64,000 bases of DNA from a bacterium. Its GTDB lineage: Bacteria > Bacillota_I > Bacilli_A > RFN20 > CAG-288. The position numbers and the translations under genes were made by a program. This document shows positions 17,659 through 35,647 of this stretch, one piece after another (position 1 is the first letter of the stretch; every line of letters starts with the position of its first letter). Location of the stretch: the NCBI GenBank assembly GCA_963648975.1, contig CAVJFW010000003.1, positions 2,921-66,920 of the forward strand. Reading direction: 5' to 3'. The notes under the pieces were generated by a model. It searched no databases and was not told where the DNA came from. It worked only from the letters and a program-made list of their open reading frames with translations.

Positions 17659-18765
17659 ATGACAGAGAAAACAAAAGACAAAGCAAAGAAGATATTCGGT
17701 CTGACCTTCAATGAAAAGAAACTTGAAGAGAAAATGACAAAGAACAATTACATATTGGGCTGTTCTTTCGTCATTGTGCTTTTTGGAATCAATTTCGTCA
17801 GATTCATCATGCTCCTATGTGACCAATGGCATTACATGAACCAAAAGTCGATATCCTTATTCATTGGTGCTTTGGCATTCGTTGTCCTTCTTATCTATCC
17901 TATCATCATGATATTGTTCTTCAAAAAGAAGATACCACCTCTTGCCGCTGACATCATATTCAATGCCTATGTACTTGCAGCATTGTTCTATGACCTTCAA
18001 ATCGGACTTGAGATCAAGATGATGCTCGGTTCCTATTTCCCTTTGTATATCATCATGATTTACATATTCCTTCTTTCTCATCTAAGACCGATCATTTCTG
18101 TTTTCTATTATCTGATTGTTGCATATGTCTTATCAATCATCTGGATCAACAATAACGGATTTGATTCCAATACGATGCAGCAGATTTATCTTTTCAGCAT
18201 CTATGTCATCTCCATCATCCGTTATTACATGAGTGACATCTCCATAAGAAATGCCATCAAGGTCGAAGAAGCAAACGAAAAGCTTCTGATTCTAAGTCTG
18301 ACGGATTCATTGACTCAGATACCAAATCGTCTTGCCATGAAGGATGACTATAAGAAATTTGAGGGAAAGAAAATACTTGTCGTCTTTCTTGATTTGGATA
18401 ACTTCAAGTCGATCAACGATGACTATTCACACGAAGACGGAAACAAAGTATTGCAGATGTTTGCCAACCATCTCAAATCAAAACTTGGACATGATGATCT
18501 TTATCGATATGGCGGAGATGAATTTGTCATCATAAGACAATGTGAAGTCGTCTCAAAAGATGAAATCCTTTCGCTCAAGGAAGATATAGGTACTCTTCAT
18601 GTCGATTACCTTGATCATGACATTCATTGCAGCATGGGTTATCAGTATGGCCTATGCACGGATGAGATGGAATATGAAAACATCATCCAGAAGGCAGATT
18701 ATTATCTCCATGAGGTAAAAAGAAACGGCAAATTCAGCATCCATGGCAGTCTTGATATAGACTGA
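17659..18765 (+). CDS. membrane-anchored diguanylate cyclase (GGDEF domain)
   Basis: An N-terminal block of about 6 TM helices and a C-terminal GGDEF domain (LTQIPNR, LDLDNFKSINDDYSHEDGN, RYGGDEF). The start is uncertain (TTG 17638, ATG 17659 or ATG 17734) and none has a strong SD. Confidence 0.85.
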   Translation: MTEKTKDKAKKIFGLTFNEKKLEEKMTKNNYILGCSFVIVLFGINFVRFIMLLCDQWHYMNQKSISLFIGALAFVVLLIYPIIMILFFKKKIPPLAADIIFNAYVLAALFYDLQIGLEIKMMLGSYFPLYIIMIYIFLLSHLRPIISVFYYLIVAYVLSIIWINNNGFDSNTMQQIYLFSIYVISIIRYYMSDISIRNAIKVEEANEKLLILSLTDSLTQIPNRLAMKDDYKKFEGKKILVVFLDLDNFKSINDDYSHEDGNKVLQMFANHLKSKLGHDDLYRYGGDEFVIIRQCEVVSKDEILSLKEDIGTLHVDYLDHDIHCSMGYQYGLCTDEMEYENIIQKADYYLHEVKRNGKFSIHGSLDID

Positions 18766-19926: not shown

Positions 19927-21366
19927 ATGAAAAAACAATTGATTCCTATTCTTTTCAGCTCCTTGTCAATGCTTCTTTTCTCCTGTAACCAGAAAAAGGA
20001 GATGGTCTATTCCTTCCCATCGCTTTTTGTCATACAAAAGGATTCATCGGATAGACTGAGTGTTGAATCTGATGAACTGATCTCTCCTTTCAATACCTAT
20101 TTTCAGACATCACTATATTGCTATGAGGGAGATTACTCATCAAGTCAGATAGATAAGATGAAAGAAGATTATCAGGAAAAAATCTGTTATTATCATGCTC
20201 TGAGTGACCGACATTATTACTATGATTACGATGAAAAGAGAATCAATAACATCAAGGTCATAAACGATTCCTATGGCAAGGAAGAATGGATTCAGCTTGA
20301 TCCCTATCTTTATGACCTACTCAAGAGAAGTTTTCAGTTCTCGCTCGACAGTGACGGGAAATTCAACATCTTCCTTGGTGAAATCAATGATGTCTATGAA
20401 AAGAAGTTGTCTGAAATCCATTCATCCTTGAATGTGTCTGATGAGGATAAGAAGCTGATGGATGTGACAGGCCTATATTTCTCGTCATTCACTGAGGAAG
20501 AAAAGGATGATATCAAGAAATATGTTTCCTATCTCCCATCCTTGGAAGAAATGAAATCGATGCTGAGCTTTGATGATGATACCAATCAGGTCATATTCCA
20601 TGCTCTGTATGATTCAGATGGGAAACAAAAGAAAATTCAGATATCCCTTGGTGGATCTGCCAAAGGCTATGCCACTGAATATTACACTTCAGAACTGAAG
20701 AAGGAATATCCGGATATCTGTCTTATCATGAATTCCGGAACTTCATCCATCAAGGCAACTGCCAAGAGAGTCGATGGAAAGAACTTTAAGATAAGATACA
20801 TAAATCCGGCTTATCAGGAACAGATTGATGCCCTGAATTCGAAGTATGTTGATTATGAAGTCATGCTCTCTCTATCCGGCCCATTCAGTCTTTCCACTTC
20901 CGGATTTTACGAAAATTATTTCTACGAGAATCAGGATGGTGATTTCATCAGAAGAAGCCATATTCTGGATTCCGCTACCGGGTATTCCTCTTCTTGCTTC
21001 GATCAGGTCGGAATCGTTGGTGATGATGCTTTTTTATCTGACATGTATACGACGGCTTTGATGAACTGCCATTCACTGGATGAAGCAAAGAGTCTTCTTG
21101 ATGGCCTGAATGGAATATATGATACTGAGTACAAGGCAATCTTCTGCGTACGTATGGAAGATAATGGTCTTTATTCCTTTTCCAAGGATAAATATTCTCC
21201 TTTGGATGAAAAGAATGATTTCATCTTCAGTGATGGCAAACCGGTGACGAAGCTCACGGGGCAATTCAAAGAAGTCTACTATGTCGATGATGATCTATAT
21301 GAAAGCTTTTCCCTGATTGAGTCGAAAACCAATAAGACTCGGATAAGTGAAATCAGGAAAATATAA
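19927..21366 (+). CDS. apbE: ApbE-family FAD:protein FMN transferase, lipoprotein with a long N-terminal extension
   Basis: Signal peptide plus lipobox (LLFSC). ApbE motifs: ISLGGSAKGYATE and SHILDSATGYS. Confidence 0.7.
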   Translation: MKKQLIPILFSSLSMLLFSCNQKKEMVYSFPSLFVIQKDSSDRLSVESDELISPFNTYFQTSLYCYEGDYSSSQIDKMKEDYQEKICYYHALSDRHYYYDYDEKRINNIKVINDSYGKEEWIQLDPYLYDLLKRSFQFSLDSDGKFNIFLGEINDVYEKKLSEIHSSLNVSDEDKKLMDVTGLYFSSFTEEEKDDIKKYVSYLPSLEEMKSMLSFDDDTNQVIFHALYDSDGKQKKIQISLGGSAKGYATEYYTSELKKEYPDICLIMNSGTSSIKATAKRVDGKNFKIRYINPAYQEQIDALNSKYVDYEVMLSLSGPFSLSTSGFYENYFYENQDGDFIRRSHILDSATGYSSSCFDQVGIVGDDAFLSDMYTTALMNCHSLDEAKSLLDGLNGIYDTEYKAIFCVRMEDNGLYSFSKDKYSPLDEKNDFIFSDGKPVTKLTGQFKEVYYVDDDLYESFSLIESKTNKTRISEIRKI

Positions 21367-21400: not shown

Positions 21401-21588
21401 AAAGGAAAGGCAATCGGAATTTGATTTTTGTGGAAGATGCTGCAGTTCGGATGGAAGGACGACTGCTTTTATGCCAAGATTGCCGGTTGGCATTTTAGAA
21501 AGGAGGGTCCAAATTCGAGTATGATTTGAACATCTATAGGATACCACTACGCTTGTCCGTTTTTTTGGACATGAAAAAAGATTACGAA

Positions 21589-22311
21589 TCAAATCGTAAT
21601 CTTTGCTCTTGTGATGATGTTTCCTTCCTTATCCTTAAGCAGATAATAGAGTTCATTGTCAATCTTCGTGTAATCGATGGTGAGATTGTCACCTTCCTTC
21701 GCTTCCTTGATGTAATTGACTTCCATCTCCTTGTAGGGTAGGTGTCTTAGCTCACTGGATTTCAGGCAATTCATGAAATAACGGATGTAGGAAATATTGT
21801 TCAGATGGTTTGAATAGTCGATGTCCGTGGATTCGACAATGACATCCCTATGGATGGTGTTTTCATTGTTGTAGTCTGGGTAGCGGTTGAACAGTCCTTT
21901 TATGGACACGTTTTCCTCTTCTGCCTTCAGATCAAGGAATGGTTTGAATTCATCTAAGTTTCTCAGCTTTCTGGTGACCATGTCGATGCTCGAGAGCTGG
22001 ATATAGGAGGTAAGAAGTGGCTCGTTCTCGTTTTCCCTGTAAAGTCTAGTGCGGAGGATGATGGCGACGGATGATTTTCTTATGGCATCCACCTTGCTAT
22101 AGATCGTATCCATGAAATGGACCCTGGAATGAAAGATGATATGGTTACGCAATACAACCATGATGGCACGATAGGTGTGATTCAGTTCCTTGGATGAGAA
22201 ACCGTTGTCACTCAAAAACTCAGTCGTCGCATCTTCGACGATCTTTGCCAATGAAAGCAGTGTGACATGCATACCGCTGTCAACCATGGAATAACGGATT
22301 TGGGTTTTCAT
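21589..22311 (-). CDS. acyl-ACP thioesterase family protein
   Basis: 240 aa with a double hot-dog layout. The second half carries DIDYSNHLNNISYIRYF (D-x-D-x-N-x-H-V/L-N-N-x-x-Y signature). It is the last gene of the fab operon. Confidence 0.65.
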   Translation of the reverse strand: MKTQIRYSMVDSGMHVTLLSLAKIVEDATTEFLSDNGFSSKELNHTYRAIMVVLRNHIIFHSRVHFMDTIYSKVDAIRKSSVAIILRTRLYRENENEPLLTSYIQLSSIDMVTRKLRNLDEFKPFLDLKAEEENVSIKGLFNRYPDYNNENTIHRDVIVESTDIDYSNHLNNISYIRYFMNCLKSSELRHLPYKEMEVNYIKEAKEGDNLTIDYTKIDNELYYLLKDKEGNIITRAKITI

Positions 22312-22393: not shown

Positions 22394-23302
22394 TTATCCA
22401 AGGATTGCCTTGATTGTATCTTCATAGCCCTGGATGTCAGAGACGTTGTAAATGTTGACAGGTGTAGTTGCCGTCTTTTTGACAAAGCTGGAAAGTGTCT
22501 TTCCTGGACCGATTTCAATGAAGGTATCGACACCTTTGTCAAGAAGGTAACGGATGGAGTCCTCGAAATAGACGGAATGGCAGATCTGAGCCTTGAGGAT
22601 GTCATTTATCGGTTCATCCATTTCCTTTCCGGAAACGTTATAGATGATTTTGTATGTCGGCTTATTGGGAGTGAAACGGTCAAGCACTTCCTTCAATTCA
22701 TCGCTGGCATGCTTCAACAGGGAACAATGGAAAGCACCAGAGACATTCAGTGGAATGCATCTTCTTGCCTTGTCCTTGAGCAGAACGATGGCATCATCGA
22801 CAGCTTTGCTTTCACCGGTGATGACTATCTGTCCAGGACAGTTGTAATTGGCGATTTCGACAATTCCGCTTTTGACTTCCTTCAATGTCTCCTGAATCGT
22901 CTCTCTGTCGAGATTGATGATGGCAGCCATCTTAGTAGTTCCAAGTGGAAGGGCGTTCTGCATGATTCTTCCACGGTTGGAGATGATCTCAATGGCATCC
23001 TTCAATGTCCACACATCAGAGAAAGTCAAGGCCGTGTATTCGCCCAAGGAAAGACCACAGCAATATTCCGGTTCGATGCCTTTATCCTTCAAGGCAGAGG
23101 CGATGCAATAGGATGTCAACAGCATTGCCTTCTGGGCATACATGGTCTGGTTGATCACTCCATCCTTGTCGATGAAGCAAAGATCCCTGACTTCAGGGAA
23201 ATCATCATAAGTCTTCCTGACGGCTGGAATCTGGTCATAGAAGTCTTTTCCCATATTGACGGCTTGGGCACCCTGACCAGCGAACAAAAAAGCGATTTTC
23301 AT
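22394..23302 (-). CDS. fabD: malonyl-CoA:ACP transacylase
   Basis: FAGQGAQ, the GLSLGEY active-site Ser motif, and a conserved C-terminal region. Confidence 0.9.
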   Translation of the reverse strand: MKIAFLFAGQGAQAVNMGKDFYDQIPAVRKTYDDFPEVRDLCFIDKDGVINQTMYAQKAMLLTSYCIASALKDKGIEPEYCCGLSLGEYTALTFSDVWTLKDAIEIISNRGRIMQNALPLGTTKMAAIINLDRETIQETLKEVKSGIVEIANYNCPGQIVITGESKAVDDAIVLLKDKARRCIPLNVSGAFHCSLLKHASDELKEVLDRFTPNKPTYKIIYNVSGKEMDEPINDILKAQICHSVYFEDSIRYLLDKGVDTFIEIGPGKTLSSFVKKTATTPVNIYNVSDIQGYEDTIKAILG

Positions 23303-23306: not shown

Positions 23307-24224
23307 TTACCTTCCTATTTTTCTGAATTTATCATATCTTTGGGAGAGCATATCCTCGACATCCATATTGGAGAGCTGTTCAATTTTTGAAATCAGGTTT
23401 TCCTTCAGCTTGTTGGAATAGTCCAAGGAAAGATATCTGAGACCTCCCAAAGGTTCGTGGATGATTTCATCGATGATTCCATATTCAAGAAGATCCTCTG
23501 ATGTCATCTTCATATAGTTGACAGCTTCCTCCGGCTTTACCTTACCTTTGAAAAGAATGGAGGAAAATCCTTCAGGGGAGAGAACACTGTAGACAGCATT
23601 TTCAAACATGTAGATGTAATCTGAAACAGTGAGTGCAAGTGCACCGCCGCTTCCTCCTTCAGAGAGGATGACGGAAATGACAGGGGTCTTAAGCATGGAG
23701 AATTCCATGAGGTTTTCGGCTATAGCCCTGGCCTGGCCTCTTTCTTCAGCTCCTTTTCCCGGATAAGCACCGGAAGTATCGACGAAGCAAAGAATCGGTC
23801 TATGGAATTTTTCGGCTTCCTTGGCAAGTCTCAATGTCTTTCTGAAACCTTCCGGAGATGTCATGCCGAAATTTCTTTTGATTTTTTCACTTGTGTCGGA
23901 ACCTTTGGCCTGTGCCAAGATGGTTACCGGATATTTCCCCAGATAGCCGATACCGGATATGATGGAGGCATCATCGGAATAATATTGGTCACCATGTAGT
24001 TCATAGAATTCAGTGATAAGATGTGAAATCAGGGTCTTTGCCTTGATTCTTTTGTCGCTTCTGGCAATACAAACCTTATCCCAAGCTGTTAGGTTGGCAT
24101 ATGTTTCCTGCTTGAATTTCTTCAGCGCATCTTTCTTTTGAAGATATTCTTCACTTTTTGGATCCAGTGTGAGAAGCTCCTCTTCCAAAGCTTCTATCTT
24201 CATTTCATTTTCTTCCAAGATCAT
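23307..24224 (-). CDS. accA: acetyl-CoA carboxylase carboxyltransferase alpha subunit
   Basis: Typical AccA motifs FVDTSGAYPG, AEERGQA and GEGGSGGALA. Confidence 0.9.
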   Translation of the reverse strand: MILEENEMKIEALEEELLTLDPKSEEYLQKKDALKKFKQETYANLTAWDKVCIARSDKRIKAKTLISHLITEFYELHGDQYYSDDASIISGIGYLGKYPVTILAQAKGSDTSEKIKRNFGMTSPEGFRKTLRLAKEAEKFHRPILCFVDTSGAYPGKGAEERGQARAIAENLMEFSMLKTPVISVILSEGGSGGALALTVSDYIYMFENAVYSVLSPEGFSSILFKGKVKPEEAVNYMKMTSEDLLEYGIIDEIIHEPLGGLRYLSLDYSNKLKENLISKIEQLSNMDVEDMLSQRYDKFRKIGR

Positions 24225-25096
24225 TATCTGTAATTATGAAGCTTTAACAAGAGACCCAAGGTCTTCTTCATATCCTTTCTTTCCACGATATTGTCGATAT
24301 ATCCTTTGCTAAGAAGGAACTCTGCTGTCTGGAAATCCTTCGGCAGGGTTTCCTTGATGGTCTGTTCGATGACTCTCTTTCCGGCAAAACCGATAAGAGC
24401 CTTTGGCTCTGCCAGGGTGATGTCGGCTAGACTTGCAAATGAAGCAGAAACACCACCGGTCGTCGGATCAGTCATTACGACGATGAACAGTTCTTTTTCC
24501 TTGAGTTTTCCAATTGCCTGACTGGTCTTTGCCATTTGGAACAGGGAAATGACACCTTCCTGCATTCTGGCACCTCCAGAGCATGTAAAGATGATGAGAG
24601 GCTTATGTTCCTTAAGTGCCTTTTCGGCCAACAAGGTGACTTTCTCACCGCAGATCGAACCCATGCTACCCATCATGAAATAGGAATCCATGACGCCGAC
24701 CAGGACACTGATGGAAGAAATCTTTCCATCAACACAGACGATGGATTCATCATCTCCTGATGTTTTTTTGGCTGTTTCCAGCTTATCCTTGTATTCCGGA
24801 AAGTCAGTATATTTTTCTTCGATGTTCTCGAATATGACGGTGTATCCTTCATCCATGACCTGGTCCAATCTTTCATGGGCATGAAGTCTTCCATGATGTC
24901 CGCAGCTCGGGCATACATGAAGATTGGAGGTGTATTCCTCGTTTAGGAGAGTCTTTCCGCAATGCGGACATTGGACAAGAAAGCCTTCCGGGATTTCTCT
25001 GGGAGTGGAGGTTTCAGGTTTTCTGATCTGAAGCTTGTCCAAGGCTTCAGAGAATTCCTTCAGCTCTTCTTTTCTTTTACTGAATGAGTCTGACAT
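24224..25096 (-). CDS. accD: acetyl-CoA carboxylase carboxyltransferase beta subunit
   Basis: N-terminal Zn ribbon CPHCGKT...CPSCGHH, then the MGSMGS and SGGARMQEG motifs. Confidence 0.9.
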   Translation of the reverse strand: MSDSFSKRKEELKEFSEALDKLQIRKPETSTPREIPEGFLVQCPHCGKTLLNEEYTSNLHVCPSCGHHGRLHAHERLDQVMDEGYTVIFENIEEKYTDFPEYKDKLETAKKTSGDDESIVCVDGKISSISVLVGVMDSYFMMGSMGSICGEKVTLLAEKALKEHKPLIIFTCSGGARMQEGVISLFQMAKTSQAIGKLKEKELFIVVMTDPTTGGVSASFASLADITLAEPKALIGFAGKRVIEQTIKETLPKDFQTAEFLLSKGYIDNIVERKDMKKTLGLLLKLHNYR

Positions 25097-26444
25097 TGTT
25101 TTCTAGCTCCTTTAGTGCCTCTTCCACAAAGGAAGTGTTGAAGTTGCCCAGGATGTATTTGGTATGATGCATGAGGTAGTAATGGAATTCAATGGTGGTC
25201 GGGACGCCTTCAATGATGAGTTCAGCCAGGGCCTCACGCATCTTTCTGATGCATTCAAGTCTTGATTCGCCATGTACGATGAGTTTGAGAATCATGGAAT
25301 CGTAGAAAGGTGGAATCTCATATCCAGGATATACGGCAGTGTCGATTCTGACCCCCTTGCCTCCAGGAAGATTCAGGAAAGTGATCTTGCCTGCAGAAGG
25401 ACGGAAGTCATTGTTGATGTCTTCGGCGTTGATTCTGCATTCGATGGCAAATCCATTCTGATGGATGTCTTCTTGTCTGTATGGAAGCTTGTTTCCCGCT
25501 GCTATTTTGATCATCAGCTTCACAAGGTCTATACCGGTGATTTCTTCGGTGATGGAATGTTCTACCTGGATTCTGGTATTCATTTCGATGAAATAATAGT
25601 TTTCATCTTCGTCAACCAAGAATTCGATGGTTCCGACTGAATCATAATTGGTTGCCTTGCAAGCCAGGATTGCAGAATCATAAAGCTTTTTCTTCAGTTC
25701 ATCGGAAATGGACTGACAGGGTGCTTCCTCAAGAATCTTCTGCTTTCTCCTCTGCATGGAGCAATTTCTTTCGAAAAGGTGTATGCAGTTATGATGTTTG
25801 TCAGCAACGACCTGAACCTCGACATGCTTTGGATTGAGGACTAATTTTTCGACATAAAGTTCATCGTTTCCGAAGAATTTCTTTGCTTCTTCCTTGGCTT
25901 CGTTGTATTTGTCAAGAAATTCCTTTTCACTGGAAACCTGACGGATGCCTTTGCCTCCGCCACCGGCGCTAGCCTTGATCAGGACAGGGAAGCCGATTTT
26001 CTGGGCGATTGCCAATCCCTCCTCACCACTGACTGCTCCATAGGATCCTGGAACGATAGGTACTCCGGCTTCCTTCATCATGGAGATGGCTTCGGACTTG
26101 TTTCCCATTTTCTCCATGACATCTGGATTGGGACCAATCCAGGTAAGTCCGCAGGTGATGACCATTCTTGCAAAGAGAGGTGATTCACTTAGGAATCCAA
26201 AGCCCGGATGAATCGCATCACAACCAGTCATGCAGGCGGCCGAAATAATGCTGGCCATGTTCAGGTATGACTGATCAGATGATGGTCCGCCGATGCAAAC
26301 TGCCTCATCGGCAAACTGGACATGAAGGGCAGATTTGTCCGCCGTTGAATAGATGGCGACGGTCTGGATTCCCATCTCCTTGCAGGCTCTGATGATTCTT
26401 ACGGCGATTTCGCCTCGGTTGGCAATCAAGATTTTCTTGAACAT
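25077..26444 (-). CDS. accC: biotin carboxylase
   Basis: KILIANRGEIA, the ATP-grasp motifs GGGGKG and EMNTRIQVEH. Confidence 0.95.
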   Translation of the reverse strand: MFKKILIANRGEIAVRIIRACKEMGIQTVAIYSTADKSALHVQFADEAVCIGGPSSDQSYLNMASIISAACMTGCDAIHPGFGFLSESPLFARMVITCGLTWIGPNPDVMEKMGNKSEAISMMKEAGVPIVPGSYGAVSGEEGLAIAQKIGFPVLIKASAGGGGKGIRQVSSEKEFLDKYNEAKEEAKKFFGNDELYVEKLVLNPKHVEVQVVADKHHNCIHLFERNCSMQRRKQKILEEAPCQSISDELKKKLYDSAILACKATNYDSVGTIEFLVDEDENYYFIEMNTRIQVEHSITEEITGIDLVKLMIKIAAGNKLPYRQEDIHQNGFAIECRINAEDINNDFRPSAGKITFLNLPGGKGVRIDTAVYPGYEIPPFYDSMILKLIVHGESRLECIRKMREALAELIIEGVPTTIEFHYYLMHHTKYILGNFNTSFVEEALKELENNVRLIQ

Positions 26445-26446: not shown

Positions 26447-26869
26447 TCAGTCTCCCAAGACAAACAGTGCCTGATCGAATTCCACCATGTCACCTTCGTT
26501 GGCAAGAATTTCCAGTACGGTACCATCCTTGTCGGCGGTGATTTCATTCATGACCTTCATGGCTTCAATGATACAGAGCTTGTCTCCTTTTTTGATATGC
26601 TGTCCAACAGAGACAAAAGGCTTTCCATCCTGATATGGAGCCTGATGGTATGTGCCGACCAATGGTGATTTGATGGTCTTGCCAGAGGTGGGCTTGACTT
26701 CTTCCTTGTTTTCTTCATTGGAAGCTTCAACAATTGGTGTACCATTTACGACAATAGGCGTCATTTCCTTTGTCAGCTTGATTTTCACGCCATCATCTTC
26801 GACTTCCAAGGAAGAGATGTTCGCTTTTTCAAACAGATGGATTACTTTTTCTATTTCTTCGAGTTTCAT
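26447..26869 (-). CDS. accB: biotin carboxyl carrier protein of ACC
   Basis: C-terminal CIIEAMKVMNEI biotinylation motif; 140 aa. Confidence 0.9.
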   Translation of the reverse strand: MKLEEIEKVIHLFEKANISSLEVEDDGVKIKLTKEMTPIVVNGTPIVEASNEENKEEVKPTSGKTIKSPLVGTYHQAPYQDGKPFVSVGQHIKKGDKLCIIEAMKVMNEITADKDGTVLEILANEGDMVEFDQALFVLGD

Positions 26870-27105
26870 TATCTGGAACCTCCTTTTTTCTTTTCAACCA
26901 AGGCAACGACATCATTTACCGTGATGAGGGTCTTGAGTTCTTCAGGTTCAATCTTGATTTTGAAATGTGTCTCCAGCTCCAGGGCCATTTCAACGGCATA
27001 AAGGGAATCAAAGGAAAGATCTTCCTTTAGTCTTGCCTCAGGGTTGATCTTATCTTCCTTTACGTTTGCAGTATCAATCAATAGTTGCTTTACTTCTTCG
27101 AACAT
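26869..27105 (-). CDS. acyl carrier protein (ACP-2)
   Basis: 78 aa with the DLSFDSLYAVEM phosphopantetheine-Ser motif and an AGGAGG RBS. Its stop overlaps the accB start. Confidence 0.8.
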   Translation of the reverse strand: MFEEVKQLLIDTANVKEDKINPEARLKEDLSFDSLYAVEMALELETHFKIKIEPEELKTLITVNDVVALVEKKKGGSR

Positions 27106-27117: not shown

Positions 27118-27867
27118 CTATTTTTGGCCTTTGTTTCTTTCTTCGTCCCAGAAATTCTTCAGGAATATCTTATAGGCACCTTCCGTGAATGGTGGTTTGC
27201 TGAGTGACTGCAGTTCTTCAGCGGAAAGGGTTCCTTCATTTCGAAATACTTCACCTGCCTTTATGAATTTGTCGAGATAGCGGTTTAATTTGTTCTCGTT
27301 ATGCAGATCGACAAGTGTCTTCATCTGTGGAACGAGAATCGGCGTATAGTTTCCTTTTCCCATTATGGCGTCATGTTGAGCTATCAAGGCCTGATAGACA
27401 CCATTCGTTTCGGTATATGCACAGGTCGAAATCAGAATAAATCTCTTGCTTGCATCCGGATACCTAAGTCCGTGGAAGGACTCGCCGTTATCAGGAGCTT
27501 TCTGTCCTTCATATGTGGACATCATGCAGAGAAGTCTGTCAGTGAGAACCTTCATGATTCCCGGCATGGAGAAATAATAAAGCGGATAGGAACAAATGAT
27601 GATGTCAGAATCAAGAATCTTCTGCTTGACCATATTCACATCATCGTCTTTTATGACGCATTCACCCGCCGTTCTTCCCCAGCAGGAGAGGCATCCCATG
27701 CAAGGTCTAATGTGGAGAGCAGAAACATCGATCATTTCTATTTCCAGGTCCGATTTGAAGTTAAGTCCCTTTAAGAAGGCCTTTGTGACGATGAGGGTAT
27801 TGCTGAGAGTCCTTCTTGGAGAACCATTCAACACCAAAACCTTCCTGGGGGAAAATTTATTCTCCAT
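27118..27867 (-). CDS. flavodoxin-fold NAD(P)H/FMN reductase-like protein with an iron-sulfur-flavoprotein Cys motif
   Basis: VLVLNGSPRR (FMN_red/flavodoxin-like N-terminus) and the compact CMGCLSCWGRTAGEC (C-x2-C-x2-C-x7-C) motif. Its ATG lies 11 nt inside the 3' end of fabZ. Confidence 0.65.
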   Translation of the reverse strand: MENKFSPRKVLVLNGSPRRTLSNTLIVTKAFLKGLNFKSDLEIEMIDVSALHIRPCMGCLSCWGRTAGECVIKDDDVNMVKQKILDSDIIICSYPLYYFSMPGIMKVLTDRLLCMMSTYEGQKAPDNGESFHGLRYPDASKRFILISTCAYTETNGVYQALIAQHDAIMGKGNYTPILVPQMKTLVDLHNENKLNRYLDKFIKAGEVFRNEGTLSAEELQSLSKPPFTEGAYKIFLKNFWDEERNKGQK

Positions 27868-28312
27868 AGATGGCTTCTTTGTTGACGGAAGTGAATGTCA
27901 TGCTTCCTTTGGCATACACAACATCATCTACCTTTACGATGGCATCAAAGCTTGTGAGAGGACCAAGAACCTTGCTCTTCTTTACCGTGATGACAAGTGT
28001 GTCACCTGGTATGACAGGCTTGATGAACTTGAAATTGTCGACTTTCAGAAGGACATAGATCTGACCATCCTTCACTCCGTCGGAATCGATGACCAAGGAA
28101 CTGAGCTGTGCACAGCATTCGATGACAAGGACACCTGGCATGATTGGAGCATCAGGAAAATGACCCATGAAATATGGCTCGTTGACAGAAACGTTCTTGA
28201 TTCCGGTGGCAGAGACGTTTGGCTCAAGTTCGATGACTTTCTCAATCATCTGGAATGGTGGACGCTGTCTGATCTTCTTATTGATGTCGTTGATATTCAT
28301 TACTGCTTTCAT
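27857..28312 (-). CDS. fabZ: 3-hydroxyacyl-ACP dehydratase
   Basis: EPYFMGHFPDAPIMPGVL active-site motif; 151 aa hot-dog fold. Confidence 0.9.
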   Translation of the reverse strand: MKAVMNINDINKKIRQRPPFQMIEKVIELEPNVSATGIKNVSVNEPYFMGHFPDAPIMPGVLVIECCAQLSSLVIDSDGVKDGQIYVLLKVDNFKFIKPVIPGDTLVITVKKSKVLGPLTSFDAIVKVDDVVYAKGSMTFTSVNKEAIYGE

Positions 28313-29043
28313 TATAAGGATAAACCTCCATCGAGTGTGATGACCTGACCGGTGAGATAGCTTGCCTCATCGCTGACGAGCATGCTGACGACATTGGCGA
28401 TATCTTCTACTTCACCAAGTCTGTGAAGCGGAATTCTGTCAAGGTTGGCCTTCATCTGTTCTTCAGGGATGTGATCGAGCATTTCGGTCTTGATGAAGCC
28501 TGGTGCGATGGCGTTGACACGGATTCCATATCTTGCCAGTTCCTTTGCAGCAGTGGCAGTGAAGGAATTGACGGCACCTTTCGTTGCGGAATAGACCGTC
28601 TGACCTGGCAAGGCGAATTTTCCGGAAACAGAGGACATGTTGACGATTGCTCCATGCTTCTTTCTCATCATCTTCAGGGCAACCTGTTGCGTGCAGTAGA
28701 AATAACCTTTGATGTTGAGATTTGTGCAGAGGTCAAGATTGTCCGGATTCATCATCAAAAGATATTCATCCCTGACGATGCCGGCGTTGTTGACGAGAAC
28801 ATCGATCTGGCCATAGGTCTTGAAGACTTCGTTGACCATCTTCTTTACTTCGTCGAGCTTGGAAACATCAGCCTTGTAGGCAATGGCTTCTCCCCCGTCG
28901 GCCTTGATTGTTTCGACAGTATTGAGTGCTGCTTCTTCGCCATGGGAGTAGTTGACGACGACAAGATAACCATCTTTTGCCAAACGGATGGCAACACCTT
29001 TTCCGATTCCCTTGGAGGAACCTGTGACAATTGCGACTTTCAT
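28312..29043 (-). CDS. fabG: 3-oxoacyl-ACP reductase
   Basis: TGSSKGIGKG, NNAG, YSATKGA and a classical SDR layout. Start set at MKVAIV, which has AAGGAGA 7 nt upstream. Confidence 0.85.
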   Translation of the reverse strand: MKVAIVTGSSKGIGKGVAIRLAKDGYLVVVNYSHGEEAALNTVETIKADGGEAIAYKADVSKLDEVKKMVNEVFKTYGQIDVLVNNAGIVRDEYLLMMNPDNLDLCTNLNIKGYFYCTQQVALKMMRKKHGAIVNMSSVSGKFALPGQTVYSATKGAVNSFTATAAKELARYGIRVNAIAPGFIKTEMLDHIPEEQMKANLDRIPLHRLGEVEDIANVVSMLVSDEASYLTGQVITLDGGLSL

Positions 29044-29059: not shown

Positions 29060-31450
29060 TTATTTGCTGATGATGACGGCAGTATAGCTTCCACCGGAAG
29101 CAAAGGCCGTGACCAAGATGTGCTTCATATCCTTGCCATAGGCAGTTGTGTTGATGACACCGGACTTCTTGAGAAGGTAGCAGGATTTGTCTTCCTTGAC
29201 GGTCTCAGAGACAAGCAGTGAAGCATCGACCAAGGAAAGAAGTGCTGCATTGGCTCTGGCTTCACCGATTCTTCTCTTTGTGGAGATGATCGGCAAGGTT
29301 TCGAGTCTGTCTTTGAAGACCTTTTCATAGACATTCTTTTCAAGATCGTCGATGGCTTTCATGCCATTTGCGAAACCGGAAATGGCAGAGATGTCATCGA
29401 TGGTAAGATGTGCTTCCTTCATGGCTTCGAGAATGGCTTTTTCCAGGGCAGCTTCTGATCCGGAAACATGTCCATATGGAACAGCGGAGTTGAATGTGGC
29501 ATATCCGGAAATCTTTCCGTAGGTCTTCACGCCTCTGTCCTTGGCATGTTTCTCGGATTCGAGAATCAGACTTGTGGCACCATCGGAAAGAACGAAGCCG
29601 TTGGATGAGGAGTATGGTTCGACATAACCATCGGCGACATATCCGAGCTGATGATATAACTGGCTGGTGATTGAGATGTTTTCATCGCTTCCGCTGACAA
29701 GGACCATTTCTTCCTTCTTGTTTTCAAGGATGTTCATGGCATAGCCGATGGAGGCAAGACCAGACTGTGGACCATTGCAAATGGTGACGTTGTAACCCTT
29801 GATGCCGGTGTAGATGGAAAGGTATCCCGCAGCGGCATTATATACGGTATTCGGGAACTTGAAGGCTGAACCAGCTGCATTTCCCTTTTCGGCCAAGGTT
29901 TCCTCAAAGAGACAACCCATGCCCATGGCACCTTCGCTCGTGCCATCGACGATGCCGATCTTCGTGGCATTGTCGTCAGTTATGGTGATGTTTGCATTCT
30001 TCAGCGCTTCGACACCGGAGAATGTTTCCAACTGTGAGACGACATCCCATTTTCTGTAGATGGACATCGGAATTCCGATGCTTGCGAAGTCCTCCTTGGA
30101 GATTTCGGAATGGACGTCACTTCCTTCGACCTTAACGTCATTATTGAAATTTTCGACATATTTTTCAAAACCGTTGCCAAGTGGAGTGACGATGCCAAAT
30201 CCGGTGATGACCTTATTGTCAAGATCCTTATCCACTTTGACGTCACCGACCTTGTCGGAGAAAATGATGGATGCATTGTTTCCGCCAAAGGCAAAGGAAT
30301 TGTTCATGACGTAATCCAACTTCTTTTCCTTTGCAACATTTGGAACAAAGTCGATATCTCCGGCATTTTCCTTCAATTGAGGCATATCCTCATCAGAGAA
30401 GCCTAGCGTCGGAGGAATGATGGAATTGTTGAGAGACTTGATGCAGAAAATGGCTTCGATGGAACCTGCTGCGCCAAGACAATGTCCCACCATCGGCTTG
30501 GTGGAGGAAACGCTGAGCTTGTCGTTGTCTGCACCGAAGATGGTCTTGAGTGACAGGAATTCGGCATAGTCATTCTTGTGGGTACCAGTACCATGGGCGT
30601 TGACATAACCGATTTCCTTGGCATCGATGCCGGAATTTCTGATGGCCCAGTTGATGGCGTTCATCTGTCCTTCGCCATCTTCCCTAGGGGCAGTGATGTG
30701 GTGGGCATCGGTGGAGACACCGCTTCCGAGAACCTCACAGTACATATGTGCTTTTCTCTTCATTGCGTGTTCATAGGATTCGACGATGAGAATGCCACTA
30801 CCTTCTCCGAGGTTGATGCCTGTGGTATGGTTGAAGGAGGAACACTGTTCTGGATCCATGGCGTGGAGGGCGAGGAATCCGGCATATGGAACGCTGGCAA
30901 AGGCATCGGTACCACCGCAGATGACAACATCTGCTCTGCCGTCACGGATAAGGTCTGTGGCATAGGAGATGGACATGGTACCTGCTGCACAGGCGTTGGC
31001 AATGGTGGTTACGACACCACCTGCATTGACATATCTTGCGACCTGGGAAGAGATGCATGCCATAGGCATCTGAAGAATCTCTTTGGTTTCCTTTCCTTTG
31101 GTGTAATAGTTCTCGATGGCATCGACACCTGCGACGCAGTTGCCGATGATGCAGGAAACGCGGGAGGAATCCTCAAATTCTTCAATTCCGGCGTCTTTCA
31201 GAGCTTCTTTTGCGGCATGAATGCATAATTTTGTTGCCCTGTCGAGATATTCCCCATTTCCGATGTCGCTAAGGTCGGTATGGACTTCGCTTGCCTTCTT
31301 TGCATAGCATCCTTCGGTTGGAACGGATGTGATTTCCTTTGTACCTGAAATGCCTTTGATCGCGTTATCGAAGCATTCCTGGACATTGTCACCGATGGAA
31401 GTGATCATTCCTAAGCCGGTGACGACACAACGATTTTTGTTTTCAGTCAT
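29060..31450 (-). CDS. fused beta-ketoacyl-ACP synthase (KAS I/II-type) plus catalytically degenerate KS-like (CLF-like) domain
   Basis: The N-terminal half has ANACAAG (Cys), DAHHITAP and NAHGTGT (His-His) and GHCLGAAG. The C-terminal half has a KS fold but reads NGPQSG / FANGMKA / IGEARANAA at the corresponding positions. Confidence 0.8.
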   Translation of the reverse strand: MTENKNRCVVTGLGMITSIGDNVQECFDNAIKGISGTKEITSVPTEGCYAKKASEVHTDLSDIGNGEYLDRATKLCIHAAKEALKDAGIEEFEDSSRVSCIIGNCVAGVDAIENYYTKGKETKEILQMPMACISSQVARYVNAGGVVTTIANACAAGTMSISYATDLIRDGRADVVICGGTDAFASVPYAGFLALHAMDPEQCSSFNHTTGINLGEGSGILIVESYEHAMKRKAHMYCEVLGSGVSTDAHHITAPREDGEGQMNAINWAIRNSGIDAKEIGYVNAHGTGTHKNDYAEFLSLKTIFGADNDKLSVSSTKPMVGHCLGAAGSIEAIFCIKSLNNSIIPPTLGFSDEDMPQLKENAGDIDFVPNVAKEKKLDYVMNNSFAFGGNNASIIFSDKVGDVKVDKDLDNKVITGFGIVTPLGNGFEKYVENFNNDVKVEGSDVHSEISKEDFASIGIPMSIYRKWDVVSQLETFSGVEALKNANITITDDNATKIGIVDGTSEGAMGMGCLFEETLAEKGNAAGSAFKFPNTVYNAAAGYLSIYTGIKGYNVTICNGPQSGLASIGYAMNILENKKEEMVLVSGSDENISITSQLYHQLGYVADGYVEPYSSSNGFVLSDGATSLILESEKHAKDRGVKTYGKISGYATFNSAVPYGHVSGSEAALEKAILEAMKEAHLTIDDISAISGFANGMKAIDDLEKNVYEKVFKDRLETLPIISTKRRIGEARANAALLSLVDASLLVSETVKEDKSCYLLKKSGVINTTAYGKDMKHILVTAFASGGSYTAVIISK

Positions 31451-31532: not shown

Positions 31533-31781
31533 TTACTTCTTGTTGGCAATGATATAAGCAGCGATGGTATCAATGCTTCTGAAGTTTTCCTTGGCAACAC
31601 CAGTCATGGAAACCTGATATTGTTCATCGATGTGGGAGATGATTTCGATGGAATCAATGGAATCAAGTCCGATTTCAGTGCCTTCGAACAATGGAGTGGA
31701 GAATTCAAGGCTGTCTGCATCGACACCGAGATTCTCGACGATGAAATCCTTAAGGTCCTGCTTAACTTCGTTTTCGTTCAT
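31533..31781 (-). CDS. acyl carrier protein (ACP-1)
   Basis: 82 aa with the GLDSIDSIEI phosphopantetheine-Ser motif. It is the first gene of the fab operon. Confidence 0.75.
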   Translation of the reverse strand: MNENEVKQDLKDFIVENLGVDADSLEFSTPLFEGTEIGLDSIDSIEIISHIDEQYQVSMTGVAKENFRSIDTIAAYIIANKK

Positions 31782-31823: not shown

Positions 31824-31853
31824 ATTATATAAAATAATATAGCTGAATGTCAA
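31824..31853 (-). promoter_or_regulatory. sigma-A-type promoter of the fab operon
   Basis: On the minus strand: TTGACA (31853-31848), an 18-nt spacer, then TATAAT (31829-24). This is about 45 nt upstream of the ACP-1 ATG. Confidence 0.55.
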
Positions 31854-31983: not shown

Positions 31984-32535
31984 CTATTCATGTATTTTGA
32001 CAAAATAATGGAGATTTGGAAAAATCTCAAAACATATGGCGGATATTTCATCCACGGAGAGGTCAAAGTCATTCTCCACCCATAGTTCGACTACGTTCAG
32101 CATGGCACTCATCAATGCCTCAAGCTGATATTCCTCCTTCTTGTCATATCTTTTCTTTTCCATTTCCGGAAGGTATTTGAGCAACGAGGATACCCTTGCC
32201 TTGAATATGAGCCTTACGATTCGTTCGTTATTCTTGACTATCGTAAATAGATTCTGATACCACTTCTCGGGATGGGTGATGTTTTCCTTCGTATTCAGTC
32301 CATTGAACAGAAGGTGGAAGACCGAAATGGAAAAATCCTTGAGGATATCTTCCTTTGATTTGTAGTTTCGGTAATAGGCTGACCTTGATACACCCGCCTT
32401 CTCCACGATTTCCGTCACGGAAATATCCTGGATTTCCTTTTTTCCCAAAAGATAGACCAATGCTTCCTGGATCGCGTTCTTGGTCAGATGATTTATTTCT
32501 TCGTTGGATAGTTTCAGATTTTTGTTTTCATTCAT
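31984..32535 (-). CDS. TetR-family transcriptional regulator
   Basis: HTH ISVTEIVEKAGVSRSAYYRNYKSKEDIL. It lies immediately upstream of the fab promoter. Confidence 0.8.
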   Translation of the reverse strand: MNENKNLKLSNEEINHLTKNAIQEALVYLLGKKEIQDISVTEIVEKAGVSRSAYYRNYKSKEDILKDFSISVFHLLFNGLNTKENITHPEKWYQNLFTIVKNNERIVRLIFKARVSSLLKYLPEMEKKRYDKKEEYQLEALMSAMLNVVELWVENDFDLSVDEISAICFEIFPNLHYFVKIHE

Positions 32536-33113
32536 TTGATTTTTTTCTTCATTGTCAAAAGGTAGCTGTTTTCGGTTTCTTCTGCCTTGATGATGTCAAA
32601 GGAATCAAGATATAAGGATGCTTCCTCATTTACAGGAAGAAGATTCCTGGAAATCGGTGATATGCCTTGATGTACTTTTGAAAGATAATCTCTTGAGATA
32701 TCATGGACGATTGCCAATATGCCATCCTTTGAAAGAACTTCTAGGGATTTTCTCTTGAATTTCCCAAGATCGAGGAAGTGGGGATAGGAATCAAACAGGA
32801 CGATTTTGTCAAAACCTTTCCTTTTCGTCAAATAGAAATCTTCATTGACAAAAGTCACTTTTGAATCCGGTATTCCTTTTTCCAGGGCAAAATGTATCAT
32901 CTTGTCGGAAAGATCCATGGCAATGACGGTTTCTAGGCTTCTTTCATATAGTCTTTCTGATATTACGCCTTTTCCACATCCGAGATCGAGAACACTGTCA
33001 CCTTTTCTTATTCCGATTTCATCGAGCAGGGAATCTATGAGACAAAAATCTTTTTTTGCGCCGTTGTCATATTCCTCTGCGATGCTGTTGAAGAATTGCT
33101 GTATTATATTCAT
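32532..33113 (-). CDS. class I SAM-dependent methyltransferase
   Basis: Motif I VLDLGCGKGV and the post-I acidic residue (AMDLS). Its stop overlaps the TetR start. Confidence 0.75.
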   Translation of the reverse strand: MNIIQQFFNSIAEEYDNGAKKDFCLIDSLLDEIGIRKGDSVLDLGCGKGVISERLYERSLETVIAMDLSDKMIHFALEKGIPDSKVTFVNEDFYLTKRKGFDKIVLFDSYPHFLDLGKFKRKSLEVLSKDGILAIVHDISRDYLSKVHQGISPISRNLLPVNEEASLYLDSFDIIKAEETENSYLLTMKKKIK

Positions 33114-34461: not shown

Positions 34462-34502
34462 AATCTCTTGCATTCCCTTTTTCTGAATCCTATACTATCA
34501 GC

Positions 34503-34588
34503 GTTACGGCGGGACTGCATATTGCGGTTGAGAGGGTTTAAACCCGACGCTTAGAACCTGTTGGTCAAGACCAGTGTAGGGAGTAAAC
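34503..34588 (+). promoter_or_regulatory. TPP (THI-box) riboswitch aptamer
   Basis: TTGAGAG...ACCC...GAACCTGTTGGTCAAGACCAGTGTAGGGAG matches the CUGAGA / ACCUGAUCUGG..CCAGCGUAGGGA core. P1 is TTAC/GTAA. It is upstream of a ThiT-like gene. Confidence 0.8.
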
Positions 34589-34617
34589 AAAACGATCGAT
34601 TGTTCACTTGTCTATTT

Positions 34618-34666: not shown

Positions 34667-35647
34667 ATGGAAGAAGCAAGGACGAAAAATAAATTTAGTA
34701 GGGAGAAATCCCAAAAATCGATTGCCCAGATCGTCATCTCGGGCATGATGCTGGCTTTGGCAATTGCCATGGAAGGTATTTCCAAATGCATACCTTTCTT
34801 TTCATGGCCACTTGGTGGATCTGTATCCATCACGATGGTTCCCTTGATACTTGTCGGTCTGTATTGTGGTCCATTATATGGTGTCGTCATTTCCGTTCTC
34901 TTCGGTGTCTTCAATTTCCTGCTTGATGGTGTCATTTCCTGGACACCGAATGTCACGGCTGTCATTCTCTCCCTGATCTTGGATTATGTCATTGGCTTTG
35001 GTGCATGTGGACTTAGCTCCATCTTCAGGAAGAAATTCTTCCAAAAAGATAGATTTGCCTGTCTTTATGCTACTCTGCTTTGTGGATTTGTCAGACTTGT
35101 TTCCAGCTTCTTCAGCGGCATGATCGTCTTTACCACGGCTTTTGACTACAGTTCCACGTCAGGACTTACGCCGGCGTTCACCTGGGCTGGATTCACTTAT
35201 TCATTGGGCTACAATGCCGGATATATGTTGCCTAGCATCGCACTTGACATCCTTGTCTTCTTCGTTCTTATCAAGCCGTTGTTCATTTCCCTTGATACGA
35301 CAATCGTGAAGAATCTTGCTCCAAAGAACAGCGAGGAAACTAAATCCCTTCCTCTTCCCTCTTTCCTACAGATGCTTCCCATCTATCTTCTTTTCGAAGT
35401 TGCCTTTGGCATCGTCAGCATGATTCCATCTCTCAAGGTAAGTTATTTTGGATACTTTGGCATTATGCTTGGTGTCGGACTTGTCAGCTACATATTGGTA
35501 GGTCTTATCAAGAAGAAAGATGAGATGAGTGTTAATCAAAGAATTCTTTATATCGTTTATCTTTTCGTTTCCCTTGTCGGCATCGCCTTATGCATCACCG
35601 GATGTGTTTCACCTGTCACATATGGTGCCACGTCCTATTCTGAATAA
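34667..35647 (+). CDS. thiT: thiamine transporter ThiT (ECF S-component-like) with an extra C-terminal membrane domain
   Basis: The N-terminal ~200 aa resemble ThiT/YuaJ (WPLGGSVSITMVPLILVGLYCGPLYG). Residues ~205-326 add about 3 more TM helices. TPP riboswitch upstream. Confidence 0.7.
   Translation: MEEARTKNKFSREKSQKSIAQIVISGMMLALAIAMEGISKCIPFFSWPLGGSVSITMVPLILVGLYCGPLYGVVISVLFGVFNFLLDGVISWTPNVTAVILSLILDYVIGFGACGLSSIFRKKFFQKDRFACLYATLLCGFVRLVSSFFSGMIVFTTAFDYSSTSGLTPAFTWAGFTYSLGYNAGYMLPSIALDILVFFVLIKPLFISLDTTIVKNLAPKNSEETKSLPLPSFLQMLPIYLLFEVAFGIVSMIPSLKVSYFGYFGIMLGVGLVSYILVGLIKKKDEMSVNQRILYIVYLFVSLVGIALCITGCVSPVTYGATSYSE

Follow-up and report, generated by a model that had tools for sequence, protein, structure and literature searches.

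The enoyl-ACP reductase (ENR) step pulls every elongation cycle of fatty acid synthesis forward, and the enzyme is the main antibacterial target of the pathway, as with FabI and FabK inhibitors. To our knowledge, the bacterial ENR classes known so far are either SDR-type (FabI, FabL, and FabV) or the FabK TIM barrel only. FabK is flavin-dependent, is encoded within Firmicutes fab operons, and fills the enoyl-reductase slot. Helicobacter pylori FabX also acts on acyl-ACP and carries both FMN and a [4Fe-4S] cluster. It has the FabK fold and works as a dehydrogenase/isomerase for unsaturated fatty acids. Isf, of the Methanosarcina thermophila family, uses ferredoxin as the electron donor for the reduction of O2 and H2O2, and we know of no Isf in lipid-synthesis operons. 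The Flavonifractor plautii flavone reductase (FLR, PDB 7D38-7D3B) is a flavodoxin-fold, WrbA-like FMN ene-reductase (PMC7862272). Its C-terminal tail forms the pocket for the substrate and is required for activity, and its reduced FMN donates a hydride to the β-carbon of an α,β-unsaturated carbonyl (PMC7862272).

The DNA analyzed here is a 64,000-nucleotide stretch, referred to as the window. It carries at 27118..27867, on the minus strand, a flavoprotein gene whose product fairly probably serves a non-canonical type II fatty acid synthase (FAS II) as its enoyl-ACP reductase, and is thus a candidate for a new, non-homologous class. The original prediction had described a 249-aa ORF of the flavodoxin-like, FMN-reductase type at 27118-27867, and the ORF call, Pfam, and the AlphaFold2 model all confirm it. 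The minus strand is a correction to that account. The product has the N-terminus MENKFSPRKVLVLNGSPRR and scores above threshold with FMN_red PF03358 (60.9 bits, cut-off 24) and Flavodoxin_2 PF02525 (53.9 bits, cut-off 27). The homologue search returned 198 database homologues with a best E-value of 1e-166. The AlphaFold2 model has a mean pLDDT of 91 and a flavodoxin-like α/β fold, for which Foldseek found AzoR, NQO, and FLR as neighbors with a probability of 1.00. Because of these 198 homologues, a Cys motif shared by all 120 of those listed, and the pLDDT of 91, we do not regard the reading frame as a chance ORF. The NCBIfam scan of the protein gave no model at or above its cut-off. Public labels are 'flavodoxin family protein' (NCBI/nr, RefSeq) and 'multimeric flavodoxin WrbA' (JGI), and its function is assigned by no paper we found, no NCBIfam model, and no RefSeq name.

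The gene belongs to a tightly coupled operon in the order ACP, fused KS-CLF, FabG, FabZ, flavoprotein, ACP, AccBCDA, FabD, and acyl-ACP thioesterase, and all of these genes are on the minus strand. The promoter scan found a consensus sigma-70-type promoter matching at 12/12 hexamer positions (31824..31853, minus strand) upstream of the first operon gene, ACP-1 (31533..31781), a PKS-like carrier protein with a PP-binding match that is also found in related loci. The fused KS-CLF of 796 aa (29060..31450) contains two ketoacyl-synt and Ketoacyl-synt_C pairs. Its N half has Cys154/His286/His323, whereas its C half has Gln562 in place of the active Cys, and these four residues are invariant in 59/59 fused homologues. 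The FabG-like 3-oxoacyl-ACP reductase (28312..29043; Pfam adh_short_C2 and KR) likely starts at the ATG at 29043, with the mechanical ORF start being a TTG at 29103, and it scores 274 bits against TIGR01830, under the 297.75 cut-off. FabZ, the 3-hydroxyacyl-ACP dehydratase (27857..28312), reaches 132.7 bits with the NCBIfam model PRK00006 FabZ (cut-off 113). The flavoprotein follows, and then the AcpP-like ACP-2 (26869..27105; PP-binding and NCBIfam acyl carrier protein models). The acetyl-CoA carboxylase genes, called from their ORFs and translations and found in related loci, are AccB (26447-26869), AccC (25077-26444), AccD (24224-25096), and AccA (23307-24224). The malonyl-CoA:ACP transacylase FabD (22394..23302; Acyl_transf_1) and an acyl-ACP thioesterase-like protein (21589..22311; 4HBT_2 and Acyl-ACP_TE_C) are the last two genes, and the terminator scan found a terminator-like hairpin at the operon end (21577-21604).

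The start codon of the flavoprotein gene lies 11 nt inside the fabZ 3′ end, as originally predicted and as the sequence confirms. The prediction had also placed the stop codon 12 nt from the AGGAGG of ACP-2. The 12 nt instead run from the stop TAG to the ACP-2 ATG, and the AGGAGG shares nucleotides with that stop codon (tAGGAGGtttcgacaATG). Every FAS II function is present in the operon except FabH and the enoyl reductase, as its gene content is without FabI, FabK, FabL, or FabV. The flavoprotein is the sole operon gene without an assigned FAS II step. Coupling directly after fabZ stands as predicted. The operon nevertheless departs from the canonical fab type: its KS-CLF is fused and carries Gln in the second active site, and FabH is missing.

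Three conserved regions were found in the flavoprotein. Residues 14-24, NGSPRRTLSNT (27796..27828, minus strand), form the predicted FMN phosphate-binding loop. Their counterpart in the FLR alignment is the loop that contacts the FMN phosphate there, and N14, S16, P17, S22, and T24 are invariant in the homologue alignment. The second region, at residues 56-70 (CMGCLSCWGRTAGEC; 27658..27702, minus strand), is the presumed [4Fe-4S] site, C56-x2-C59-x2-C62-x7-C70. The C-x2-C-x2-C-x7-C cluster had been part of the original prediction and is well borne out: all four Cys are invariant in the alignment, and the motif, including the x7 spacing, is kept in 120/120 listed homologues. It fits the ISF motif CX2CX2CX5-7C (as quoted in PMC3164229), and also the pattern when written as CX2CX2CX4-7C. 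Judged from this pattern, the loop probably holds a [4Fe-4S] cluster. The third region is a Flavodoxin_2/NQO-type flavin-site segment at residues 95-111 (PLYYFSMPGIMKVLTDR; 27535..27585, minus strand), supported by HMMER alignments to NQO2 and FLR. P95, L96, F99, M101, P102, G103, K106, D110, and R111 are invariant there, and D110 aligns at most one residue from the FLR Asp that touches the partner-subunit flavin. At the other end of the protein, a helical extension (about residues 190-246) is conserved with the motif KPPF..GAYKIFL..FW.

FLR is the closest solved relative of the flavoprotein and its top PDB sequence match, with an E-value against 7D38 of 1.7e-9 by single-sequence phmmer and 1.6e-11 by profile. 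The single-sequence alignment spans flavoprotein residues 10-113 and includes the Cys loop. Both proteins have the flavodoxin/WrbA-like core and the FMN phosphate loop. Their '...TDR' interface segments are similar, a Cys-rich loop occupies the matching position in each, and each has a C-terminal extension. The similarity is nevertheless detectable over about 100 N-terminal residues only, with a Foldseek TM-score of about 0.46, and the C-terminal extension of the flavoprotein is not alignable by sequence with the FLR tail. FLR is 310 aa long, its Cys spacing is x2-x2-x11 instead of x7 in the last interval, it is located outside any fatty-acid cluster, and it acts on free flavones and not on acyl-ACP. 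No Fe-S cluster was reported for FLR (PMC7862272), and our full-text literature search found nothing on Fe-S in this enzyme. Because FLR was assayed with added flavin reductase (PMC7862272), its activity does not imply that NAD(P)H is used directly. The original prediction had stated that no flavodoxin-fold Fe-S enzyme is known for enoyl-ACP reduction. FLR provides a precedent for ene-reduction by this fold. For the enoyl-ACP step itself, the full-text literature search found no description of a flavodoxin-fold or Fe-S enoyl-ACP reductase, and a 2022 ENR review leaves flavodoxin unmentioned. The same search found no description of the KS-CLF fatty-acid cluster of the flavoprotein, and nothing on the ENR content of L. 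eligens or Acholeplasma.

The other known enzymes resemble the flavoprotein in part. Like the flavoprotein, Isf is a flavodoxin-like FMN protein of anaerobes with a compact Cys motif thought to bind [4Fe-4S]; Isf has no C-terminal domain of the flavoprotein type. The support for the suggested kinship with archaeal Isf is the Cys motif, and no chain named as Isf was found among the PDB sequence matches with E-values up to 10. AzoR and NQO1/NQO2 (Flavodoxin_2) are the best structural matches, with a Foldseek E-value of about 2e-9 and a TM-score of about 0.55, and share a PLYWFS.P..LK...DR-type segment with the flavoprotein. They lack the Cys cluster and an ACP context, their C-terminal region is different, and their substrates are soluble quinones or azo compounds. 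Two Foldseek matches (1tik and 1t5b) carry the name 'ACP phosphodiesterase', a historical misnomer for E. coli AzoR that is no evidence of an ACP link. FabK matches the role proposed for the flavoprotein but belongs to the TIM-barrel NMO family (PF03060, TIGR03151), with no kinship in sequence or fold. FabX uses the proposed cofactor pair on an ACP-bound acyl chain, but it has no homology to the flavoprotein.

We searched for canonical enoyl reductases and FabH around the cluster. FabK and FabH queries in tblastn had no match in the window, in 10 kb beyond one window end, or within 10 kb at the 80 loci described below, and FabI queries over the same regions matched only the in-cluster FabG. 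The FabK query itself scores as TIGR03151 FabK, and as a positive control the same FabK and FabH queries recovered both genes in a canonical plsX-fabH-fabK-fabD-fabG-acpP-fabF cluster. The ENR search reached 20-kb neighborhoods, about 74 kb of the source genome, and, as a partial FabK check, the 626-kb replicon of Lachnospira eligens. A tblastn search of PLSDB with FabK returned no L. eligens record among the 60 best matches, and a close FabK on that replicon is unlikely. The flavoprotein gave no match to PF03060/TIGR03151 (FabK, NMO) and no adh_short-type match of the SDR-type ENRs (FabI/FabL/FabV). An SDR at 10012-10824 was considered as a hidden FabI or FabL and rejected: it matches the gluconate 5-dehydrogenase subfamily best, and its 25 listed matches include no ENR model.

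A subfamily occurring mostly outside fab contexts had been named as grounds for rejecting the enoyl-reductase proposal. With the flavoprotein as the query, it was found in the same synthase cluster in 80/80 of the genome loci retrieved. Two gene orders were seen. In Acholeplasmatales-like Bacilli the flavoprotein follows FabZ, and in Clostridia such as L. eligens it lies between AccA and PlsX or a thioesterase. Its retention in both orders indicates that it moves with the pathway and not with one fixed neighbor. In L. eligens the cluster is directly upstream of plsX. We also looked for KS-CLF clusters in which FabK replaces the flavoprotein. A metagenome scan seeded with the L. eligens KS-CLF as its first row showed the flavoprotein in all loci with enough flank, with matches almost only to L. 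eligens strains and thus little diversity. A protein search with the CLF half gave mostly fragments and ordinary FabF. PlsX, PlsC-type acyltransferases, an acyl-ACP thioesterase, BirA, and a putative BioY-like membrane protein are found in or beside the cluster, and the nearby PlsX scores 251.8 bits with TIGR00182 (cut-off 243.4). These neighbors fit membrane-lipid synthesis. The placement of the flavoprotein in the enoyl-reductase slot is strengthened by the synteny, by the absence of FabK, FabI, and FabH nearby, and by the PlsX, PlsC, and thioesterase genes, while the strand, canonical-operon, no-precedent, and Isf-kinship details of the original prediction had to be amended.

The wider family is more diverse. 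In-cluster members are at least 47% identical to the window flavoprotein, whereas the examined paralogues reach at most 43%, lie outside the cluster, and are often fused to a lipid-binding SCP2 domain. Fusions in the wider family involve the SCP2 domain or a GDSL lipase, and the last homologue profile search returned only long SCP2-type forms. One long-form paralogue is in a cluster with a type I PKS, a thioesterase, and AccBCDA, and two of four adjoin PadR regulators. As the contexts of the top paralogues examined were varied in this way, the fold alone is no proof of a role in lipid synthesis.

We propose the following mechanism, in which the substrate, cofactor content, electron donor, and catalytic residues of the flavoprotein are putative. 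Acetyl-CoA carboxylase and FabD would supply malonyl-ACP. The KS-CLF, with Gln at its second active site, may prime synthesis through malonyl-ACP decarboxylation, and the KS half would then elongate the chain. Such priming would account for the absence of FabH, and the fusion suggests PKS-style decarboxylative priming in primary metabolism. FabG would reduce the 3-keto group and FabZ would then dehydrate the product. The flavoprotein would act as a dimer of flavodoxin-fold subunits that bind FMN where they meet, and its C-terminal helical extension may form the pocket for the acyl chain and pantetheine. Reduced FMN would transfer a hydride to C3 of trans-2-enoyl-ACP, with a proton added to C2, as FLR does on an α,β-unsaturated ketone. 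A [4Fe-4S] cluster, probably present in the Cys loop, would relay electrons one at a time to FMN, with ferredoxin or flavodoxin as their source. Direct FMN reduction by NAD(P)H in a ping-pong manner, as in AzoR/NQO1, is the alternative. Either PlsX or PlsC would receive the saturated acyl-ACP, or the thioesterase would release it. In its widest form, the proposal is that the subfamily is an unrecognized, non-homologous enoyl-ACP reductase class (flavodoxin fold, FMN, probably [4Fe-4S], and maybe ferredoxin-driven) in a KS-CLF-primed, FabH-less FAS II, and that this synthase serves several hundred gut and rumen species, among them L. eligens, Anaeroplasma, and Acholeplasmatales-like Bacilli, as their housekeeping lipid pathway. 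We hold the chances of this full statement to be evenly balanced.

A canonical FabK or FabI might be encoded elsewhere in the genome, and the flavoprotein might be an accessory redox enzyme, either a FabX-like dehydrogenase/isomerase that introduces a cis double bond for anaerobic unsaturated acids or a partner for electron transfer or flavin reduction. The precedent for an enzyme with FMN and [4Fe-4S] acting on acyl-ACP is H. pylori FabX. Besides its one FabZ, the cluster contains neither FabA nor FabM nor FabN, which leaves the unsaturated-acid route without an assigned cluster gene as well. However, canonical Firmicutes clusters keep FabK inside the fab operon, whereas 80/80 clusters here have the flavoprotein and no FabK. 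The closest characterized homologue, FLR, reduces an activated C=C bond, and the flavoprotein has no homology to FabX or FabK. We therefore consider an accessory role unlikely. ApbE, a flavin transferase adjoining the operon, was considered as a partner of the flavoprotein and rejected, as it carries a lipoprotein signal and its position next to the cluster is not conserved.

Polyene-forming highly reducing type II PKSs likewise combine KS-CLF, KR, and DH without ER. The cluster may be such a PKS-like system for a polyene or a partly reduced specialized lipid instead of the housekeeping fatty acid synthase, with the flavoprotein as a tailoring ene-reductase for some double bonds only. A KS-CLF pair whose second site has Gln is characteristic of PKSs, sub-threshold NCBIfam likeness to cispentacin AmcF, AmcE, and AmcB and flexirubin FlxB was seen, and the type I PKS cluster of one long-form paralogue points the same way. 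Yet FabZ and the KS half exceed FAS-type NCBIfam cut-offs, and AccABCD, BirA, the putative BioY-like protein, PlsX, PlsC, and the acyl-ACP thioesterase surround the cluster. It is also conserved in the Acholeplasmatales-like Bacilli, which have small genomes, and its L. eligens counterpart lies directly upstream of plsX. A specialized-lipid role is thus quite improbable. A further reading is that the flavoprotein is a general NAD(P)H quinone/azo reductase, or an oxidative-stress protein of the Isf kind, that shares a transcript with the fab genes and has no role in chain synthesis. The azoreductases and quinone reductases among the structural neighbors, the Isf-type Cys motif, and the PadR stress regulators beside two of the four long-form paralogues would agree with it. 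This reading is very improbable, given the translational coupling within the operon, the retention in the cluster in two gene orders and two bacterial classes at 80/80 loci, and the identity of in-cluster members compared with paralogues (at least 47% versus at most 43%).

If the flavoprotein is the enoyl-ACP reductase, its flavodoxin-fold Fe-S class would be a new analogous enzyme in a textbook pathway and would account for the completion of fatty acid synthesis in many abundant gut anaerobes. Pathway calls for metagenome-assembled genomes would improve, and commensals naturally spared by narrow-spectrum FabI- or FabK-directed drugs would be predicted. With a ferredoxin link, lipid synthesis would be coupled directly to the redox metabolism of anaerobes. 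Directly upstream of the operon, Pfam identifies two further minus-strand genes that are conserved in the closest relatives: a TetR-family regulator (31984-32535) and a SAM methyltransferase (32532-33113).

The flavoprotein gene (27118-27867, minus strand) is a genuine open reading frame and sits in a minus-strand operon with the order ACP-1, a 796-aa double ketosynthase, FabG, FabZ, the flavoprotein, ACP-2, AccB, AccC, AccD, AccA, FabD, and an acyl-ACP thioesterase-like protein. A promoter matching 12 of 12 consensus positions (31853-31824, minus strand) lies 5' of the operon, a terminator-like hairpin (21604-21577, minus strand) marks its end, and genes for a TetR regulator and a methyltransferase are immediately upstream. 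Most junctions overlap or have gaps of a few bases. The flavoprotein ATG overlaps the 3' end of fabZ by 11 nt, in agreement with the original prediction. The predicted distance of 12 nt on the ACP-2 side is also correct, but it runs from the TAG stop to the ACP-2 ATG; the AGGAGG, to which it had been assigned, overlaps the stop codon. The operon encodes two acyl carrier proteins, a PKS-like ACP-1 (31533-31781, minus strand) and an AcpP-like ACP-2 (26869-27105, minus strand), and Clostridia-type clusters retain ACP-1 only. A second terminator-like hairpin (31521-31499) follows ACP-1.

The double ketosynthase (29060-31450, minus strand) is a fusion of ketosynthase and chain-length factor (KS-CLF). 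Its N-terminal half retains Cys154, His286, and His323, and its C-terminal half has Gln562 at the active-Cys position, both in agreement with all 59 fused homologues. In type II PKS chain-length factors and KSQ domains, such an arrangement primes the chain via malonyl-ACP decarboxylation. Priming of this kind would explain the missing FabH, which tblastn found neither in the window nor in the 80 related loci. The conserved residues suggest that an apparently primary fatty acid synthesis is primed by decarboxylation in the PKS style, and we found no description of such a fusion or such priming there in the literature. With KS-CLF priming as a candidate for the FabH step, enoyl reduction is the only FAS II step left without one, and among the operon genes only the flavoprotein has no assigned step.

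The 249-aa flavoprotein starts with MENKFSPRKVLVLNGSPRR and carries the Cys motif in residues 56-70 (CMGCLSCWGRTAGEC). Its Pfam matches, FMN_red at 60.9 bits and Flavodoxin_2 at 53.9 bits, both exceed the gathering cut-offs, and no NCBIfam model reaches its own cut-off. We found 198 homologues in a set of 5.8 billion proteins; those with an NCBI/nr name appear as "flavodoxin family protein", and one entry from JGI as "multimeric flavodoxin WrbA". In a 31-sequence alignment, the FMN loop residues (N14, S16, P17, S22, and T24), all four cysteines of the motif, the PL.F.MPG..K...DR segment, and C149 are invariant, and the x7 spacing of the motif occurs in all 120 listed homologues. This motif fits the iron-sulfur flavoprotein (Isf) pattern CX2CX2CX5-7C (PMC3164229), supporting that part of the predicted Isf kinship, but a sequence search of the PDB recovered no Isf structure, so Isf membership is unproven.

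The AlphaFold2 model (mean pLDDT 91, pTM 0.90) has lower confidence only near the Cys loop. In the PDB, Foldseek matched it to azoreductases that depend on FMN, to NQO1/NQO2, and to flavone reductase (TM-scores 0.46-0.57). The top solved relative by sequence is 7D38 ("Cd1"), the flavone reductase FLR of Flavonifractor plautii, which is described as a distinct class of ene-reductase with a WrbA-like fold, binds FMN at the dimer interface, and requires its C-terminal tail for activity (PMC7862272). In its proposed mechanism, FMNH- donates a hydride to the beta-carbon and solvent protonates the alpha-carbon (PMC7862272). The single-sequence alignment with FLR spans residues 10-113, including the phosphate loop, the Cys loop, and a TDR segment that holds the FLR Asp contacting the flavin of the partner subunit. 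The Cys loop of FLR is CxxCxxCx11C, whereas the last spacing in the flavoprotein is x7. The original prediction had seen no precedent for this step in a flavodoxin fold, but FLR, as the best solved relative, already gives the fold a precedent for alpha,beta-unsaturated carbonyl reduction. An enoyl-reductase function for the flavoprotein itself is assigned in none of the papers, NCBIfam models, or RefSeq names that we found.

We consider the flavoprotein to be probably the enoyl-ACP reductase of the operon. A flavoprotein dimer with FMN would reduce trans-2-enoyl-ACP by hydride transfer from the reduced FMN, with the acyl pocket presumably formed by the C-terminal helices. The Cys loop probably carries a [4Fe-4S] cluster through which ferredoxin or flavodoxin could supply electrons; FMN may instead be reduced directly by NAD(P)H, the route used by AzoR and NQO1. 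A known pathway step would then apparently be done by a non-homologous fold inside a variant FAS II.

A canonical enoyl-ACP reductase elsewhere in the genome, leaving the flavoprotein an accessory or FabX-like role, is in our judgment unlikely, on searches that covered the window, the 80 loci, 10 kb more of the source contig, and a plasmid collection. With FabK, FabI, and FabH as tblastn queries against the window and the 80 loci, FabK was not found, and the sole FabI match was the in-cluster FabG. As controls, the FabK query scored 506 bits on TIGR03151, and the same queries recovered fabH and two NMO genes from a cluster of canonical type (plsX-fabH-fabK-fabD-fabG-acpP-NMO-fabF). The additional 10 kb from the source contig (GCA_963618855.1) contained no enoyl-ACP reductase, and Lachnospira eligens was absent among the 60 best FabK matches in a plasmid collection (listed down to about 37% identity).

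Scanning a single genome for each GTDB species gave 436 stretches encoding a flavoprotein relative; in all of the best 80, which were fetched, the gene is inside the same fatty acid cluster. It follows FabZ in Acholeplasmatales, Anaeroplasma, and "Enterosoma"-type Bacilli, as in the window. In Clostridia (L. eligens and MAGs resembling Christensenella and Ruminococcus), the genes run ACP, KS-CLF, FabG, FabZ, FabD, AccD, AccA, and flavoprotein, with an 8-nt overlap between accA and the flavoprotein gene. The next gene is plsX in 25 Clostridia-type loci (TIGR00182 251.8 bits, cut-off 243.4) and an acyl-ACP thioesterase in others, with PlsC-type acyltransferases upstream. The gene keeps with the pathway though its neighbors change, which argues for a functional link, not merely inherited adjacency. 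We regard it as quite improbable that the cluster encodes a reducing type II PKS of the polyene type, in which the flavoprotein would be a tailoring ene-reductase. A hitch-hiking quinone, azo, or stress reductase is very improbable.

In E. eligens ATCC 27750, the cluster is on a 626-kb replicon immediately 5' of plsX, and RefSeq names its flavoprotein "flavodoxin family protein". The whole KS-CLF/flavoprotein/plsX cluster, within the fetched stretch NC_012780.1 209408-238136, is about 6 kb from ftsZ on this "plasmid", which thus behaves as a secondary chromosome. The same record has three more matches to the flavoprotein.

A profile search of 1.84 billion representatives gave 226 proteins at E <= 1e-30. 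Among the top matches, identity to the window protein shows a break near 45%, with the in-cluster subfamily at 47% or more and the remaining top matches examined at 43% or less. Of this more distant group, about half are long forms carrying a lipid-binding SCP2 domain at the C terminus, and one is fused to a GDSL lipase. Of four long forms, two adjoin PadR regulators. In Clostridium algidicarnis (GCA_020443655.1), a 531-aa long-form paralogue with a flavodoxin-like domain and SCP2 (10001-11596 of the fetched locus) sits between a type I PKS/thioesterase/ABC transporter set and an AccBCDA set, and it may be a trans-acting ene-reductase for a polyketide. The wider family appears to handle hydrophobic substrates, and the consistent tie to fatty acid synthesis is confined to the in-cluster subfamily. 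One profile-search match (P0243, 390 aa) joins AccA to the flavoprotein, perhaps through a true gene fusion, perhaps as an artefact or frameshift from the overlapping genes.

In Bacilli-type loci, BirA follows FabD, often with a putative BioY-like membrane protein or thioesterase next. BirA is thus within the fatty-acid cluster in related genomes, whereas in the window (3481-4200) it follows a Na+-pumping oxaloacetate decarboxylase-type set (3481-7512 with BirA, all minus strand) of an alpha subunit (6130-7512), a small membrane ORF as a possible gamma subunit (5807-6133), a biotin carrier (5413-5790), and a beta subunit (4210-5409). An ApbE-family flavin transferase gene with a lipoprotein-type signal (19927-21366, plus strand) is convergent with the operon end; it is not kept beside the cluster in related loci and is therefore probably unrelated to the operon. 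Two DegV-family genes (50538-51428, minus strand; 51874-52737, plus strand) are present; such proteins are FakB-like and bind fatty acids, so uptake of exogenous fatty acids may also occur in this organism. In a 1597-aa ORF (45675-50468, plus strand), the N terminus contains a hydrophobic segment, and Pfam gave no match at E <= 1e-5. A TPP riboswitch (34498-34599, plus strand) is upstream of a ThiT/YuaJ-type thiamine transporter component (34667-35647, plus strand). A c-di-GMP-I riboswitch (17536-17609, plus strand, 56.2 bits) is directly 5' of a GGDEF diguanylate cyclase gene (17638-18765, plus strand), and the pair could form a feedback loop on c-di-GMP synthesis.
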